From NCBI GenBank assembly GCA_028875575.1, contig JAPPDF010000052.1, positions 2,554 to 66,553 of the forward strand: 64,000 bases of DNA, given 5' to 3'. Positions 1,922-35,715 of the stretch are shown here, piece after piece. Every line of letters starts with the position of its first letter. Position 1 is the stretch's first letter. The notes under the pieces are model-generated. The model saw nothing but the letters and a program-made list of their open reading frames with translations. It was not told where the DNA came from and did no database searches. The stretch comes from Acidobacteriota bacterium (lineage in GTDB: Bacteria; Acidobacteriota; Terriglobia; Versatilivoradales; Versatilivoraceae). Made by a program: the position numbers and the translations under genes.

Positions 1922-4726
1922 CTACTTCTTGGCAGCCGCGGCGAAGTCTCCTGCCTTGACGATGGTCATCTTGTCCAGGTCCAGGTGGCGTCCGAGGGCG
2001 GATAGGATCTGGTCCGCGGTGAGAGCATCGATCTTCCGCTCGAAGTCCTCGTCCCAGGCCAGCGTTCGACCCTGAAAAAGGCGACTGGCCATGGTGCCGG
2101 CCAGGCGGTTGTCCTGAGATCGGCTCACCTGGCGGGACTGCAGGTACCCCGACTTGGCTGCCGCAATTTCCTTGGCGGTGAACCCGTCGGTGAGCGCCCG
2201 CTCAACCTCCTCCCGGAAGGCCGCTTCCACTCTTTCGATATTTTGCGGCGCCGCAATCGCCCAGGTGCTGAAGGCACCGTGCTCGTCCTTGGCTCGCGCT
2301 TCCAGATAGGCTCGAACCCCGTAGCTGAGCCCCTCTTTCTGGCGAATGCGCACCGCCAGGCGAGAGTTGAGAAATCCGCCGCCCAGCATGTAGTTGCCCA
2401 ACACCAGCGCCGGGTAGTCGGGGTGGCTGTCGCTGACAGCCAGGGGCATTCCGGCGATGAAGACTGCGTTGGCCTTGTCGGGCGTCTCTACCGAACGGTT
2501 GGCCGGGGCGATTTCCTGATAGGGGTTTTCAACTCTCTGGTAAGCACCGGGGCTGCTCCAATCGGGAAAGATCTCCTTCAGGACCTCAACGATGCTGTCG
2601 GTTTCGAAGTCCCCCGATATGGCCACTTCTCCGTCTGAGGCGCCGTAGAAGTCCCGGTGGAATCCTTTCACCTCCTCCAGAGTTGCAGACTTGATGGAGT
2701 CAATTCGCTCGTCAAAGGTGGGCGAATAGTTGACATGCCCCTTGGGATAAGTATTGCCGTGGCGCGCAAAGGTGCTCGCGGCAATCGCTTGGGGATTGCT
2801 CATCTGCTGCTCTATGGCGGCCAGTCGTTCCTCCTTGAGCGTGTTGAACTCCCCTTCCGGAAAGGAAGCCTGGCGAAACACTTCCCCGACCAGCCGCAGG
2901 ACTTCGGGAAGATTCTCCTTGACAGTCTCCATCGATGCGGAGGCGCCGGTCGCGCCTCCCGAGACGCGGCCTGTCGCCTTGAGCCGATCCAGTGCATCCT
3001 GGATCTCCTGCCTGGTGCGCCCCGCCGTGCCTCGCATGAGCATCGATCCGGTCAATCCCGCGATGATGTTCTTATGCATCAGGCTCTTCTCGTTGCCGAA
3101 ATGAAGTCTTATGTTGGCGACGACCGTGCTCCCGCGCGTTTTCTTGGGAAGCAGCGCCAGTTTCAGGTTGGATCCGATCGACAGTCGTTGCACTCGAGAC
3201 TCGATGTTACCGGGTGACGGATCGAATGCCTCACCCGCGGCGACGGCGGCGTCCCCCTTGTAGTCCTTGAGCATGGCTGCGACGTCGGGGCGTTGGGGGA
3301 TTTCGGCCCTGTCCGGATCCTCGGTGGGGACGAATTGCCCCAGGGTTCGGTTGGATGACTTCAGATAAGTGGACGCCGCCCGGTGCACATCTTCAGGCGT
3401 CACTTTTCTGATGCGGTCCCGATGGAGGAAGAAAAGGCGCCAGTCACCCATGGCTACCCATTCACTCAGGCTCAAACCCACTCGATTCACGTCGTTGAGA
3501 GCCAGATCGATGTTCTTCAGCAGTTGCGTCCGCGCCCGCTCGACCTCCTCAGCCTTGGGCGGTTCCCGCCGGATGTCCTCGACCGTGCTCAGGTAGGCCT
3601 GCCGGGCCTGCTCCAGCGAATCCTGCTGGCGCACTTCGGCGCCCAACAGCACAACTCCCGGGTCGTGTAATTGAAAGTTGAAGCCGTAGACTCGGCTGGC
3701 CTTCTTGGTTTCGACCAGTGTCTTGTGCAAACGCCCCGAGGGTGTATCGGAGAGGATATGGGTCAGGAGATCCAGGGCGGCAAAGTCGGGGTGGGATCCC
3801 GCTGGAATGTGGTAGGCGGCCATCAGCAACTGCACGTCGCCCACCCGACGCAGCGTTACCGTGCGTTCGCCATCCTGGGTGGGCTCGGAGGTATAGGGTT
3901 TCTGCAGTCGTCGGGTCGGGCGGGGAATGGGACCGAATTTCTTGGCAATCAAGGCCAGGGTGCTGGCGACCTCGAACTTTCCGGCCACCAGCAGGACGGC
4001 ATTATCGGGCTGGTAGTACTTGCGATAGAAAGCCTTCAAGCGGTCAATGGAGACGTTTTCGATGTCGGAGCGGGCGCCGATAGTGGACTTGCCGTAGTTG
4101 TGCCAGAGAAAAGCAGAGGCCAGCGTGCGCTGCATCAGGATGCGGACCGGATTGTTTTCCCCGCGCTCAAACTCGTTGCGGACCACCGTCATTTCGCTGT
4201 CCAGGTCCTTCTTGGCGATGAAGGAATTGATCATGCGGTCGGCTTCCAGATCCAGTGCCCAATCCAGATTTTTGTCGGTAGCTCTGAAGGTTTCGAAATA
4301 GTTGGTCCGGTCGAACCAGGTAGTGCCGTTGGGGCGGGCTCCATGCTCGGTCAGTTCCTGCGGGATGTTGGGGTGCCGCGGAGTGCCCTTGAAGACCAGG
4401 TGCTCCAGCAGGTGGGCCATCCCGGTCTCACCGTAACTCTCGTGCAGGGATCCCACCAGGTAGGTGATATTCACGGTAATGGTGGGCTTGGAGGGGTCGG
4501 GAAAGAGCAGAATCCGAAGCCCATTGTCCAGGCGGTATTCGGTGATTCCTTCGACCGAAGTCACCCGCTCCATTCCTTCCGGCAGGCTGGAGTCTTGCGG
4601 CCGCACGGGAACCGGCGCCGCGGCAGCGGTGGACCCCGTCCACAAAACCAGGGCGAACAAGACCACGCCCGCCAAAATCATGGCAAGGGGTCTGGAAGAG
4701 AGGGAGATTGTTCTGGGAGACTGCAT
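1922..4726 (-). CDS. M16 family zinc peptidase (insulinase/PqqL-like, two-half single chain) with N-terminal signal peptide
   Basis: Inverted zinc motif HLLEHLVFKGT (HxxEH) in the first half and a second inactive M16 half, about 930 aa. ATG 4726 is preceded by GAGGA 8 nt upstream. Hydrophobic signal MILAGVVLFALVLWTGSTAAAA. Confidence 0.85.
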   Translation of the reverse strand: MQSPRTISLSSRPLAMILAGVVLFALVLWTGSTAAAAPVPVRPQDSSLPEGMERVTSVEGITEYRLDNGLRILLFPDPSKPTITVNITYLVGSLHESYGETGMAHLLEHLVFKGTPRHPNIPQELTEHGARPNGTTWFDRTNYFETFRATDKNLDWALDLEADRMINSFIAKKDLDSEMTVVRNEFERGENNPVRILMQRTLASAFLWHNYGKSTIGARSDIENVSIDRLKAFYRKYYQPDNAVLLVAGKFEVASTLALIAKKFGPIPRPTRRLQKPYTSEPTQDGERTVTLRRVGDVQLLMAAYHIPAGSHPDFAALDLLTHILSDTPSGRLHKTLVETKKASRVYGFNFQLHDPGVVLLGAEVRQQDSLEQARQAYLSTVEDIRREPPKAEEVERARTQLLKNIDLALNDVNRVGLSLSEWVAMGDWRLFFLHRDRIRKVTPEDVHRAASTYLKSSNRTLGQFVPTEDPDRAEIPQRPDVAAMLKDYKGDAAVAAGEAFDPSPGNIESRVQRLSIGSNLKLALLPKKTRGSTVVANIRLHFGNEKSLMHKNIIAGLTGSMLMRGTAGRTRQEIQDALDRLKATGRVSGGATGASASMETVKENLPEVLRLVGEVFRQASFPEGEFNTLKEERLAAIEQQMSNPQAIAASTFARHGNTYPKGHVNYSPTFDERIDSIKSATLEEVKGFHRDFYGASDGEVAISGDFETDSIVEVLKEIFPDWSSPGAYQRVENPYQEIAPANRSVETPDKANAVFIAGMPLAVSDSHPDYPALVLGNYMLGGGFLNSRLAVRIRQKEGLSYGVRAYLEARAKDEHGAFSTWAIAAPQNIERVEAAFREEVERALTDGFTAKEIAAAKSGYLQSRQVSRSQDNRLAGTMASRLFQGRTLAWDEDFERKIDALTADQILSALGRHLDLDKMTIVKAGDFAAAAKK

Positions 4727-31632: not shown

Positions 31633-32502
31633 CTAGTAAAGAGTTCGGGCCAAGCGTCCCCTGAACTCCTCGGCCAGGTCGCTTCTTTCCCCAATCAGGC
31701 TGAAAACGGCCAGCATGGCCTTGCGGGCGGAGTCCTCCCGGTAATGCTTGTCCCGGGCGACCACGGCCAGAAACTCCTCCAGCGCTTCCCGATATTGTCC
31801 GGTCGCCGCCAGGCAGGAGGCCAGGGCCATGCGTGCGCCCAGGTCTTGCGGAGTGCTTTCCAGGATTTTCCTCAGAGAGGCCTGACCGCCCGCCTCCGCG
31901 CAATCCGCCTGGAATCCGATAACCTGTTCCAGCCGGTCGGCGGCTTCCTTTTCGTCGGCCAGAAACGGAATGGCCTTGAGATGGGATCGGGCCTGTTCCG
32001 GCAGGTGCTCCTCAATCAACAGCCTGGCCAGAGCCAGACGGGCCGGCGAGTGTTGTGGTTCGCGGTCGATGACCTGTTCCAGAAGACCTTTGGCCGCCTC
32101 TTTTCTCCCGGCCTCCAATGCAACTCGTGCCTCAGAAAAGAGCTTGTCGACCTCGGTGGGACAGTAGGGTTTGAGAAACCGGCGAATCTCGGCTTCAGGG
32201 ATGGCTCCCGCGAACTGGTCGACCGCTTTCCCCTCCAGGAAAAGGACGACTTGCGGGATGCTGCGGATCTGGAAGGCAAGGGCCAGGTCCGGACTTTCGT
32301 CGGTATTGATCTTGGCCAGCAGGAAGGCTCCAGCGTACTCTACTGCCAGTTTCTCCAGGACCGGACTCAAGCTGTGGCAGGGACCGCACCAGGGAGCCCA
32401 GAAGTCCACCAGCACCGGGGTGGTGCGGGATTTTTCGACCACTTCGGATTCAAACTGGTCCTGCTCGAGGTCAACGACAAATTTTGAAGTGGATGACGCC
32501 AT
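31633..32502 (-). CDS. Thioredoxin-domain cochaperone with TPR repeats (YbbN/CnoX-like)
   Basis: WCGPC thioredoxin active site followed by about 180 aa of TPR-like helical repeats. Confidence 0.8.
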   Translation of the reverse strand: MASSTSKFVVDLEQDQFESEVVEKSRTTPVLVDFWAPWCGPCHSLSPVLEKLAVEYAGAFLLAKINTDESPDLALAFQIRSIPQVVLFLEGKAVDQFAGAIPEAEIRRFLKPYCPTEVDKLFSEARVALEAGRKEAAKGLLEQVIDREPQHSPARLALARLLIEEHLPEQARSHLKAIPFLADEKEAADRLEQVIGFQADCAEAGGQASLRKILESTPQDLGARMALASCLAATGQYREALEEFLAVVARDKHYREDSARKAMLAVFSLIGERSDLAEEFRGRLARTLY

Positions 32503-32665: not shown

Positions 32666-32859
32666 TTGTGGGTTAGGGGAGAGCCGCGAAGCTGCGGTTG
32701 GAGTGGGTAGGCAAGGAAACGCTTACTACAAGCCATCCTTATAGAGCTGCGTAGCAGCGGCTCAGGGTAGCCCCGGGCGGCAGCCCGGGGTCGTATGGTT
32801 CTGCTCCAACCCCGCCGCGAAGGCGGCGAATCAAGAGCCGGGTCCCGCAACGCACAGCC
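32666..32859 (+). repeat. Intergenic repeat element R2, copy B (candidate structured ncRNA)
   Basis: Same orientation as copy A (10095-10289). Conserved blocks CAAGCCATCCTT(G/A)TAGAGCTGC and GTAGCCCCGG(A/G)CGGCAGCCCGGGGTCGT. Confidence 0.5.
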
Positions 32860-33110: not shown

Positions 33111-33809
33111 ATGCGCAAGGTGCTGTGGATGGCTTCATTGCTACCGGTTGTTGCCACAATGCACCATCCTGTGGCAGCCCAGGTCAACCTGTCCTTTGAC
33201 GGCAGGGTGGTGAACCTGACGGCGTCGAACGAGAGTTACGGAAGCATCCTGGACCTTCTGGGCCGGCACACGGGAATGGCGGTGGAGATTCCCGGCGAGT
33301 TGAAGTCCGTGCGGGTTCCCCTGCTGGAGATACGAGGGCTGGAAGTCAAGGCAACCGTTCTGAAGATCATGGAAGGGAGTGGTTTTGATTACTTTCTGTT
33401 GACTCGGACGGGTCGTCCCGACACCCTGTCCCGCTTGATCGTATCCGGCAAATCCAAGAAGATCGCGCCACCGGCCCGGCGCAGTCGACCGCCCTCCCGA
33501 TCTCCCCGCAGACCCTTTGTTGGCCGCAATGTGACACCTTTCAACCCACGGACGGGTTCAGGGGCAAGGACTGGCTCCAGGGCGCAGAAGATCAAGCCGG
33601 CGGTGCAGCCCAAGACCACGCCGACCGCCCAGCCCGCCACTGCCTTTCCGGTCGGCCAGCCCTACGGCCAAACCTTGAGCAGCCAACCTCCTGGTATCGG
33701 CCAACCCGCTGCAGCGCAGCCCCGGCAGGTGCGTTCCCCACGGGCCTCCGGGGGACAGACAACCGCGAATCCCAGCCGTCGTGCACCCAACCCATACCAG
33801 CGGAAATAG
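33111..33809 (+). CDS. Secreted hypothetical protein: N-terminal about 110-aa globular domain (STN/secretin-N-like pattern) plus Pro/Arg/Gln-rich low-complexity tail
   Basis: Signal peptide MRKVLWMASLLPVVATMHHPVAA. SD AGAGGTGA. The C-terminal half is compositionally biased. Domain assignment is tentative. Confidence 0.5.
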   Translation: MRKVLWMASLLPVVATMHHPVAAQVNLSFDGRVVNLTASNESYGSILDLLGRHTGMAVEIPGELKSVRVPLLEIRGLEVKATVLKIMEGSGFDYFLLTRTGRPDTLSRLIVSGKSKKIAPPARRSRPPSRSPRRPFVGRNVTPFNPRTGSGARTGSRAQKIKPAVQPKTTPTAQPATAFPVGQPYGQTLSSQPPGIGQPAAAQPRQVRSPRASGGQTTANPSRRAPNPYQRK

Positions 33810-33833
33810 CCCTTCAAGCGCAGTGCCGGGCTC

Positions 33834-34316
33834 ATGAAGTCTTCCAACACGCAGCGGACCGGAGAAAAGACAGTCAGCCTGAACAGGAAGGCCTTCCACC
33901 AGTACCACATCTCCGATGTTTTCGAAGCCGGCATGGCCTTGCGCGGCACCGAGGTCAAATCCATTCGAGCCGGTCGGGTCAACTTGAAAGAAGGGTACGG
34001 TGCGGTCAAAGGCGGGGAAGTGTGGCTGCTCAACTGTCATATCAGTCCCTATGAGCAGGGAAACCGCATGAACCACCATCCCCTGCGGCCGCGAAAGTTG
34101 TTGCTTCACCGCCGGGAGATTCGAAAACTGATTGGGCAGACCAGTGAGCGGGGCATGACCCTGGTGCCGCTTCGCATCTACTTCCACAAGGGCCGGGCCA
34201 AGTGTGAGATCGCGCTGGCCAAGGGGAAGAAGCTCTTCGACAAGCGGGAAAAGGAGAAACGCAAGGCCATGGAGCGGGAAGCCCGCCAGGCCATGAAACA
34301 GAAGGCGGTTGGTTGA
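33834..34316 (+). CDS. smpB: SsrA-binding protein SmpB
   Basis: SmpB family (…LRGTEVKS…LLNCHISPY…) with basic C-terminal tail. Confidence 0.95.
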   Translation: MKSSNTQRTGEKTVSLNRKAFHQYHISDVFEAGMALRGTEVKSIRAGRVNLKEGYGAVKGGEVWLLNCHISPYEQGNRMNHHPLRPRKLLLHRREIRKLIGQTSERGMTLVPLRIYFHKGRAKCEIALAKGKKLFDKREKEKRKAMEREARQAMKQKAVG

Positions 34317-35098
34317 GGGAAGGCAGTGCGAGGTCGACTGTGGGAAACAGCTTCGAGTTGAAGACCCGCCGGCTTTTCGCCGGCATCATCGGTCAGCGGG
34401 ACCGGTGGTTAGAGCGGCAGCGGTCTCCCGGGGCCGATGTGACGTTCGAGCGATTGACCGGAGACGTTTGGGCCAGACACAACTGCGCTCTGGACCAGCC
34501 CGGGGTGAGGGCCGGTCCTGTACCGGCCTCCTGGCAAAACGAGGGGCGGCGTCAACTGGAGCGCCACCTCAAGGCTTGCCGCTGGTTTCTGGAGAGAGTC
34601 CCACAATCCGCTGCGCCGACTCCTGCCGACCTGCGGCAGCTGCACTCCCGACTCATGGGACAGCCCGCGGATCGACTATCCGACTACCGGAATGCGCCGG
34701 CAGCGCCCCTGCTGGAAAGTCATGACCCTGCAGAGTGGGAACTGGTTCCACACCTGGTTGATACGGCCCTTCAGTGGTGCCGGGCGGATAGTTTCGGCGA
34801 GATGCACGAGGTGGAGCAGACTGCGTTGGTCCTGCTGAAGTTGACCGACATCCAACCCTTTGACCGCCACAACGGAAAGACACTGCGCCTGTTCTCGAAC
34901 TTCTTTCTGGTCAGATCGGGATATCCGCCCGCTGTGATTCGCTCCGAGCAGGCCGATCGGTATCTGATGGCGCTTCAGAAGGGTCTGTGCTACCAAACCG
35001 GTTCGTTGGTCGAGCTCTTGACCGAATCGGTGGCATTCAGCCTCGGCTACTGTCTGGGAGAACCTCCCAGCCCGCCACCTTTTGTGGTTCTGGACTGA
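34313..35098 (+). CDS. Fic-fold family protein with degenerate active-site motif
   Basis: Helix-motif region ALVLLKLTDIQPFDRHNGKTLRLFSNFFLVRSG aligns to the Fic core HPFx(D/E)GNGR, but reads QPFDRHNGK (catalytic His replaced by Gln). TTG start overlaps the smpB stop by 4 bp. Confidence 0.6.
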   Translation: MREGSARSTVGNSFELKTRRLFAGIIGQRDRWLERQRSPGADVTFERLTGDVWARHNCALDQPGVRAGPVPASWQNEGRRQLERHLKACRWFLERVPQSAAPTPADLRQLHSRLMGQPADRLSDYRNAPAAPLLESHDPAEWELVPHLVDTALQWCRADSFGEMHEVEQTALVLLKLTDIQPFDRHNGKTLRLFSNFFLVRSGYPPAVIRSEQADRYLMALQKGLCYQTGSLVELLTESVAFSLGYCLGEPPSPPPFVVLD

Positions 35099-35133
35099 AG
35101 ACATCCCGGGCCACCTCTGACCTGTTCTCTCCC

Positions 35134-35715
35134 ATGGAAGCCGTCAGAACCTTCATCTGCCTCCAACTTCCCGCGTTCGCCAGGGAACGGCTTGCGTCCA
35201 CCCAGCACCAGTTGCGGGAGAGTGGAGCGCAAGTCAGTTGGGTCAAGCCGCACAATATCCACCTGACCCTCAAGTTTCTGGGGTCGGTCCCGGCGGAACG
35301 CCTGCATGAGGTGGTGCGGGCAGTGCAACGGGCGGTGGTGCCGGCCCCGCCCATCCAGTTGGAATTGACCGTGTTGGGTTGTTTCCCCAACAGGCGTGCG
35401 CCCAGGGTTATCTGGGCGGGGCCGAAACAGCTGCCCGAAAAGCTGAGAAACCTGCAGCAGAGGGTTGAAAAGGAGCTGGTCGCAACAGGGTTTCCTGCTG
35501 AATCACGTCCCTTCTCTCCCCATTTCACCTTGGGTAGGGTCCGATCGGGCCGAAACATTGGGAAGCTGGTGGCGGCAATGCAAGCGGCGCGGCTGGAGCC
35601 GCTGCTGTTCGAAGCAGCCGAAGTCATAGTGATGGCCAGCCGGCTCCACCCCTCTGGTGCCCTTTACACCCCCGTCTCGCGCGTCCCCTGGAATTCCCCC
35701 GACCCCGGCCACTGA
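35134..35715 (+). CDS. thpR: RNA 2',3'-cyclic phosphodiesterase ThpR (LigT-like 2H phosphoesterase)
   Basis: Two H-x-T/S-x motifs (HLTLKFLG and HFTLGRV). ATG 35134. Confidence 0.8.
   Translation: MEAVRTFICLQLPAFARERLASTQHQLRESGAQVSWVKPHNIHLTLKFLGSVPAERLHEVVRAVQRAVVPAPPIQLELTVLGCFPNRRAPRVIWAGPKQLPEKLRNLQQRVEKELVATGFPAESRPFSPHFTLGRVRSGRNIGKLVAAMQAARLEPLLFEAAEVIVMASRLHPSGALYTPVSRVPWNSPDPGH

Follow-up and report, generated by a model that had tools for sequence, protein, structure and literature searches.

What does a protein with a Fic fold and without the catalytic histidine do when its gene lies directly behind smpB, in the setting of ribosome rescue? The question is raised by a 64,000-nucleotide (nt) stretch of contig JAPPDF010000052.1 from an Acidobacteriota bacterium (assembly GCA_028875575.1), here called the window, in which four closely spaced genes, all on the forward (+) strand, encode a secreted STN-like protein, SmpB, the Fic-like protein and ThpR. 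What is new here is a subfamily of probable Fic-fold pseudoenzymes with a conserved, previously unreported linkage to smpB. We tentatively hypothesize that the Fic-like protein is a pseudoenzyme that works by binding, and that its gene is co-transcribed with smpB in a conserved cluster consisting of the STN-like gene, smpB, the His-less Fic gene and, often, thpR.

By sequence and by predicted structure, the middle gene encodes a FICD-like Fic-fold protein. It matches the Pfam family Fic/DOC (PF02661) over profile positions 3-93 of 93 with 33.2 bits (gathering threshold 24) and an E-value of 9.5e-8, and precomputed PF02661 matches exist for 48 of 48 full-length homologues. The best relative of solved structure is human FICD, detected at 2e-13 with the single sequence and at 3.5e-22 with the family profile; the other best solved relatives by sequence or profile are C. 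elegans Fic-1 and BT_2513. An AlphaFold2 (AF2) model computed from 28 family sequences is all-helical, with a predicted local distance difference test score (pLDDT) of 79 and a predicted template-modelling (TM) score of 0.80. Foldseek places this model on FICD and Fic-1 with TM scores of 0.64-0.74 over about 250 columns, and the top 29 matches of the predicted structure in the PDB are all FICD, Fic-1 or BT_2513 (TM 0.63-0.74, probability 1.00). An earlier note, made from the letters of the window alone, had proposed a Fic fold for this protein; the Pfam match above threshold and the predicted FICD-like structure both bear this out.

The signature of Fic proteins is HxFx(D/E)GNGRxxR, with the catalytic His in first position (PMC3667792, PMC7842960). 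HMMER aligns QPFDRHNGKTLR of the window protein under HPFIDGNGRTSR of FICD, and the longer stretch IQPFDRHNGKTLRLF under FICD IHPFIDGNGRTSRLL. Within the motif, His is changed to Gln, the Mg-binding Asp to Arg, the first Gly to His and the first Arg to Lys, while Phe, Asn, the second Gly (Gly2) and the second Arg (Arg2) are kept. The window protein does not carry the signature of a catalytically competent Fic AMP-transferase: as judged from the alignment, the catalytic His is lost and, in the lineage of the window, so is the Mg-binding acid. The reading QPFDRHNGK given in the earlier note, with Gln for His and altered acidic and Gly positions, is exact in this alignment.

The same note had a protein of 261 residues begin inside the smpB stop codon, with a 4-bp overlap; this is the TTG at 34313, from which the longest ORF runs. 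That start is probably too long and finds no support among homologues, 39 of 48 of which (full-length sequences) are called at 252 residues and start MGNxFELKT. Several relatives have an ATG at the position aligned with GTG 34340, lying 11-33 nt past the smpB stop. Because of the homologue lengths, the conservation of the N-terminus and the GAGG 6 nt 5' of it, GTG 34340 is the likely start. The true gene thus probably begins 23 nt past the smpB stop, which still leaves the genes close together.

We observed that adjacency to smpB, for which the earlier note had only the window to go on, is kept in relatives. A genome scan gave 20 loci, in metagenome-assembled genomes (MAGs) all labelled Acidobacteriota except two Acidimicrobiia, and 19 of these include upstream sequence. 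In 19 of 19, smpB is directly upstream and ends 0-39 nt before the Fic-like start, with a homologue of the 232-residue STN-like protein preceding smpB. A metagenome scan gave 80 loci, one of which (L053) is the same contig as genome locus L018. Among those with enough upstream sequence to be informative, smpB is directly upstream in 30 of 30 loci of the group of 252-residue proteins and in 16 of 19 loci of a 207-residue group, both described below. The contigs of P0053 (with a 4-nt overlap), P0201, P0207, P0055, P0057, P0058 and P0290 also carry smpB followed by the Fic-like gene. The spacing between the two genes in relatives is about -7 to +47 nt (approximate where it was estimated from alignments), the spacer itself is conserved in L001-L004, and the linkage is held down to about 26% Fic identity. 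The outer flanks vary among the linked loci, upstream (trx-TPR, GDSL lipase, abhydrolase, Bac_transf) as well as downstream (thpR, cysG/hemD, ThiF and others), so the smpB-Fic pair is more stable than its surroundings. No smpB was found within 2.7 kb of the Fic-like gene in L083 or L084, and in L087 (840-3435) and L101 (537-3456) smpB is parted from the Fic-like gene by a PepA gene, the ends of which overlap or nearly abut.

This co-directional gene for a leucyl aminopeptidase (PepA, Peptidase_M17) adjoins the Fic-like gene in L092 (14-1037) as well as in L087 and L101, and L025 (23-997) is listed likewise among the loci with PepA in the smpB-Fic region.

The linkage to smpB might be an inherited gene order of Acidobacteriota, with the Fic-like protein serving an unrelated role, for example in chaperone regulation as FICD does with BiP. 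The labelled linked loci are, as said, nearly all from this phylum; trx-TPR, hemC and cysG/hemD are likewise syntenic among the closer genomes; and an Hsp70 is, according to the PDB entries, the target of FICD, which is the closest characterised relative. Distant members of the pseudo-Fic clade also stand in other contexts, where they are not linked to smpB: P0070 is found in a Fic-LplA-DnaJ arrangement, P0066 follows SerRS and Clp_N/NTP_transferase, and a group with the motif QPFExxNExTAL (L068, L070, L077, L079, L082) follows a conserved open reading frame (ORF) of 111-118 residues. We nevertheless consider this explanation rather unlikely for the linked loci, whose smpB-Fic junction outlasts the outer flanks while Fic identity falls to 26-45%, whose spacing stays within the range given above, overlaps included, and whose pair, where it is interrupted, is split by a single co-directional pepA that shares overlapping stops and starts with its neighbours. 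In what was seen here, the smpB-Fic association belongs to Acidobacteriota; the only organism label among the listed matches of the 207-residue group is Terriglobia (P0250).

Two side observations concern these loci. The two labelled Acidimicrobiia (L017 and L018) encode SmpB proteins 74-77% identical to that of the window, and their bins may be misclassified; the trx-TPR and STN-like neighbours of the window are the same in L017 and partly the same in L018. The ORF of 111-118 residues that precedes the QPFExxNExTAL group (at about 2217-2558 in L077) is without a Pfam or NCBIfam match, and the two genes may make up a unit of another kind.

Searched exhaustively with a profile, 1.84 billion cluster representatives gave 18 clusters below 1e-30 and 742 below 1e-10. 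In a rough neighbour-joining tree, canonical FICD-like proteins (HPFxDGNGRTxR, with a SNAIEG-type inhibitory motif) form the outgroup, and nested within it is a large clade of proteins of roughly 200-270 residues with altered motifs. Among 145 aligned representatives from the best 150 matches of the search, the His position is occupied by Q in 52, H in 40, A in 10 and R in 9, the remainder having other residues. The subclade of the window, defined as unique sequences at least 55% identical to the window protein, comprises 57 sequences with the motif QPFDRHNGK, the residues of which are conserved, in order, in 57 (Q), 57 (P), 57 (F), 55 (D), 52 (R), 44 (H), 56 (N), 57 (G) and 43 (K) of them, and Arg2 in 57. 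A wider 252-residue group of 59 unique sequences has Q (28), L (11), W (6), H (6), R (3), F (2), S (2) or T (1) at the His position and often keeps the remaining motif, as in QPFDEANGR and WPFEEGNGR. The 207-residue group, with 129 unique sequences, has a fixed WPFEFGN(L/F/M)T, with W in 129 of 129, and its Arg2 is replaced by L, I, V or M. Each subclade's own replacement motif is nearly invariant. Since the His position is so varied across smpB-linked members, the transfer base is not what selection keeps.

The clade of FICD-like bacterial proteins with a replaced catalytic His is large and mostly unannotated. In the source databases its members go by 'Fic family protein' or by 'fido (protein-threonine AMPylation protein)', and we found no NCBIfam model specific to this Fic subfamily. 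Given that the catalytic His is replaced, the AMPylase annotation is probably wrong. That AMP-transfer is lost, as the earlier note had suggested, fits the family pattern, in which Q, W, L, R, F, S or T takes the His position in nearly all smpB-linked members; the loss itself we infer, and we consider it probable that the Fic-like protein is not an AMPylase.

Other parts of the class II Fic architecture can be followed in the alignments. With MAFFT, SNAIEG or TVGIEG of canonical relatives falls over HNCALDQ of the window protein; relative to the class II motif (S/T)xxxE(G/N), the S/T is Asn in the window and the G/N position is variable. Across 116 members of the 252-residue group, the inhibitory position is D or E in 109, and of the signature residues Arg2 is present in 116, Asn in 113 and Gly2 in 114. 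The inhibitory acid lies 120 residues from the His position in the window protein, versus 131-134 in canonical relatives. Pairing of the inhibitory Glu with Arg2 underlies Fic inhibition (PMC3667792). The 207-residue group has lost both partners, its N-terminal inhibitory segment being missing and its Arg2 replaced, which fits this pairing; together with the alignment, the joint loss supports NCALD as the equivalent of the inhibitory motif. A literal match to the class II motif, SWQNEG at residues 64-69 of the 252-residue protein, was rejected, as it is not conserved in relatives. Among the closer relatives, R117 in the segment aligned with the FICD flap is invariant, and Y116, P123, L124, E126, H128 and P130 are nearly so.

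If the former active site is so well kept, could it still be that of an enzyme, with altered chemistry? Such a protein would bind a nucleotide or a phosphorylated substrate without Mg and then catalyse without His, for example the hydrolysis of phosphodiesters on proteins or at RNA ends, and would use the Asn-Gly anion hole, Arg2, the Arg and Lys substitutions and the Asp/Glu of the inhibitory helix. RNA-end hydrolysis would suit the neighbouring thpR, and the replacement motif is as tight within each subclade as an active site would be. The Arg at the D/E position parallels a Lys of the Bartonella effector BepC that contacts ATP's alpha and beta phosphates in place of Mg (PMC7842960). Many members of the 252-residue group have only the His changed, and a few are fully canonical. 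Fido chemistry is known to diverge, AnkX being a Fido protein with phosphocholine transferase activity. Doc, for its part, is a kinase (PMC4454073). Against this stand the chemically unrelated residues at the His position (Q, W, L, R, F, S, T) despite a common gene context, and the hydrophobic site of the 207-residue group (WPFEFGNLT, with Arg2 changed to L, I or V), which is incompatible with phosphate binding and yet smpB-linked. In addition, we know of no characterised Fic-motif transferase or deAMPylase that does not require the motif His. On this evidence an enzyme of altered chemistry seems quite unlikely.

The Fic-like gene is under purifying selection and is not decaying. Its ratio of nonsynonymous to synonymous substitution rates (dN/dS, by the Nei-Gojobori method, window versus eight relatives) is 0.20-0.37, compared with 0.06-0.16 for smpB and 0.15-0.21 for thpR; one outlier of 0.66, for the gene of L004, is attributed to an uncorrected one-codon indel in slicing and not to biology. 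More than 100 unique homologues have an intact ORF, and mean column identity over the family is 73%. A decaying pseudogene, or a chance resemblance to the Fic motif, which the degenerate catalytic motif and the modest single-sequence Pfam E-value might suggest, is refuted for practical purposes by these values together with the FICD profile match and the confidently predicted Fic fold.

We therefore return to a pseudoenzyme that acts by binding as the most likely reading. The Fic-like gene is very probably co-transcribed with smpB; no terminator-like site was found on the + strand from 33809 to 35715. The Fic scaffold would keep its fold, the inhibitory-helix acid paired with the second motif Arg, the anion hole formed by Asn and Gly, and the segment equivalent to the flap. 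Its former active-site face would bind some partner, or a ligand bearing a phosphate, that has to do with ribosome rescue by SmpB-tmRNA, and what is bound would be modulated rather than modified. Degenerate-motif Fic proteins are expected to have new functions (PMC3667792). The gene context, on which the theme of RNA and translation quality control proposed in the earlier note is also based, makes it possible that the protein is functionally tied to trans-translation. More specific, and in our judgement doubtful, is the idea of a dedicated trans-translation accessory factor in Acidobacteriota, a Fic-fold 'reader' or adaptor of SmpB, EF-Tu or tmRNA-ribosome complexes; in lineages where thpR is present, rescue would also be coupled to the processing of 2',3'-cyclic-phosphate RNA ends, which would be those left by endonucleolytic mRNA cleavage.

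We stress that several observations weigh against a purely binding role tied to SmpB. The motif is fully canonical in a few smpB-linked members, L016 and L035 with HPFDEGNGRTLR and L064 with HPFDDGNGRTLR, so some lineages may still catalyse and the ancestral protein may have been an enzyme. The many members that alter the His alone keep (D/E)(G/A)NGRxxR, and such a change could reflect nucleotide binding or a different chemistry and not pure scaffolding. The flap region is of low confidence in the AF2 model (pLDDT below 50 for residues 112-129), with no strands predicted. Finally, because the linked loci come apparently from one phylum, inherited synteny adds to the counts of linked loci.

SmpB has known partners in tmRNA, EF-Tu, the ribosome and RNase R; our literature searches brought up none with a Fic fold. 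Searches for SmpB with Fic, smpB with thpR, degenerate or non-canonical Fic motifs and Versatilivorator returned nothing describing the pairing, in agreement with the earlier remark that this was not recognised as a described module. With its place directly 3' of smpB kept through deep divergence, in a major phylum found in soil and with sponges, the gene is a concrete candidate for modulating ribosome rescue in a lineage-specific way. Were the protein indeed an accessory factor of trans-translation, no Fic-fold component of such a pathway would have been known before it, and it would be a natural case of a Fic enzyme turned into a substrate-trap-like binder. The three subclade-specific, internally conserved former active sites offer a natural series for studying the change from Fic enzyme to pseudoenzyme.

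Table 1. Positions of the genes and sequence elements of the smpB-Fic locus in the window (aa, amino acids)
Feature	Position	Strand	Basis or remark
Secreted STN-like gene, 232 aa	33111-33809	+	Probable first operon gene, directly 5' of smpB
smpB, SsrA-binding protein of trans-translation, 160 aa	33834-34316	+	Pfam SmpB 5.1e-61
Spacer between smpB stop and probable Fic-like start, 23 nt	34317-34339	+	GAGG 6 nt before GTG
FICD-like Fic-fold gene, 252 aa from GTG 34340 (probable start)	34340-35098	+	Pfam Fic/DOC PF02661
NCALD, residues 48-52, putative inhibitory-helix equivalent	34481-34495	+	Alignment with canonical relatives
Putative flap (target-dock) equivalent YRNAPAAPLLESHDP, residues 116-130	34685-34729	+	Alignment with FICD RFRTTQVLVGHHIPP
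Altered Fic signature QPFDRHNGKTLR replacing HxFx(D/E)GNGRxxR	34853-34888	+	Residue-by-residue FICD alignment
thpR, LigT-family RNA 2',3'-cyclic phosphodiesterase, 193 aa	35134-35715	+	TIGR02258

The identities of the flanking genes (Table 1) are clear. SmpB scores 216 bits with NF003843 (cut-off 130) and 184.4 bits with TIGR00086 (cut-off 119.1). ThpR scores 143.8 bits with TIGR02258 (cut-off 65.7), matches Pfam LigT_PEase at 3e-30 and keeps both HxT motifs of 2H phosphoesterases, HLTL at residues 43-46 (35260-35271) and HFTL at residues 130-133 (35521-35532). The wider neighbourhood in the window is one of housekeeping genes (hemA, hemC, cysG/hemD, trx), and neither ARAGORN nor Rfam found a tRNA or tmRNA (ssrA) gene in its 64 kb. 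The closest genome is a Candidatus Versatilivorator MAG (Acidobacteriota, Terriglobia), whose Fic-like protein and SmpB are 91% and 95% identical to those of the window.

The earlier note had treated SmpB, the Fic-like protein and ThpR as one set. ThpR is correctly identified and is a frequent neighbour, but in many lineages it is displaced, separated or replaced by ThiF, so it is not an obligatory member. In the window thpR starts 35 nt after the Fic-like stop, and the distance is 35-65 nt there and in L001-L012, L015, L017, L027, L028, L033, L040, L055 and the contig of P0058. One ORF with a signal peptide and a DUF2490 match separates the two genes (about 820 nt) throughout the QPFDEANGR subgroup (L047, at 3830-4552, L041, L044, L046-L050, L053 and L056), a TraY-like/ParE toxin-antitoxin pair does so in one MAG (L023, 4348-4810), and in L019 thpR is 4 kb away from the Fic-like gene. 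No thpR was found in the available sequence of L013, L014, L021 and L034. In the 207-residue group, a gene for a MoeB/ThiF-family adenylyltransferase overlaps the Fic stop by about 14 nt in place of thpR, as in L110 (5001-6645), L024, L083 and L092, so that the order becomes STN-like gene, smpB, Fic and ThiF. The triad of smpB, Fic and thpR is found at 33-37% Fic identity and is therefore old and frequent but need not be complete; smpB is the partner that stays constant.

A secreted STN-like protein encoded upstream, which the earlier note did not mention, is part of the conserved unit as well. The window copy of this 232-residue protein has a signal peptide and a Pro/Gln/Arg-rich tail and is without a Pfam or NCBIfam match; its homologues have a weak match to PF07660, STN (secretin/TonB N-terminal). 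By tblastn, a homologue lies 5' of smpB in L001-L019, L021 and L023 as well as in many of the metagenome loci, and the gene keeps its place next to smpB in nearly all loci that have the smpB-Fic pair. That a ribosome-rescue operon should begin with a gene for a secreted protein is unexpected. The divergent intergenic region of about 600 nt between the STN-like gene and a thioredoxin-TPR gene (31633-32502, - strand) also contains an Acido-Lenti-1 RNA (RF01687) at 32745-32790 on the - strand, with 42.8 bits versus a gathering threshold of 37.

A toxin-antitoxin or defence system was considered and rejected: there is no antitoxin gene, the surroundings are housekeeping genes and PADLOC gave only weak generic Fic matches. 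In particular, no small antitoxin partner ORF of the class I FicTA type was found beside the Fic-like gene, whose neighbours are smpB and thpR.

How, then, does this protein compare with known Fic systems? Its nearest characterised relatives, FICD/HYPE and C. elegans Fic-1, are class II Fic enzymes that AMPylate and deAMPylate BiP. The window protein has the core helices in common with them, EMHEVE...QPF in place of the LHPVE...HPF-type context, a putative N-terminal inhibitory-helix motif at similar spacing (NCALD versus the TVAIEG type) and Arg2. Unlike FICD and Fic-1, it has no TPR or membrane anchor, is bacterial, cytoplasmic and encoded beside smpB, and carries the four motif substitutions described above, from His to Gln through to the first Arg to Lys. 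With the FIC domain of Bartonella BepC it shares a non-canonical conserved motif whose D/E position is taken by a basic residue, and that domain works through protein binding, not catalysis (PMC7842960). There is no closeness at the sequence level, however, and BepC keeps the His and the remaining motif (HxFxKGNGRxxR) and is a secreted type IV secretion system effector, which has OB and BID domains and targets GEF-H1 of the host. AvrB, the classic motif-less Fido protein (PMC4454073, PMC7842960), resembles it in having a Fic-like fold without the catalytic signature, but is a type III effector of a plant pathogen with a very divergent sequence, whereas F, N, G and Arg2 are still present in the window protein, which also passes the Fic profile.

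Some proteins of the Fic/Doc fold are also known to target the translation machinery. Doc does so by phosphorylating EF-Tu, by which tmRNA-SmpB is delivered. The Fic2 protein of Campylobacter fetus, which has a degenerate motif, perturbs ribosomes by disturbing the joining of their subunits (PMC5651007). Unlike the window protein, Doc and Fic2 have the catalytic His and serve as the toxins in toxin-antitoxin pairs, the H184A variant of Fic2 being non-toxic; the window protein stands without an antitoxin gene and without the His, in a housekeeping operon.

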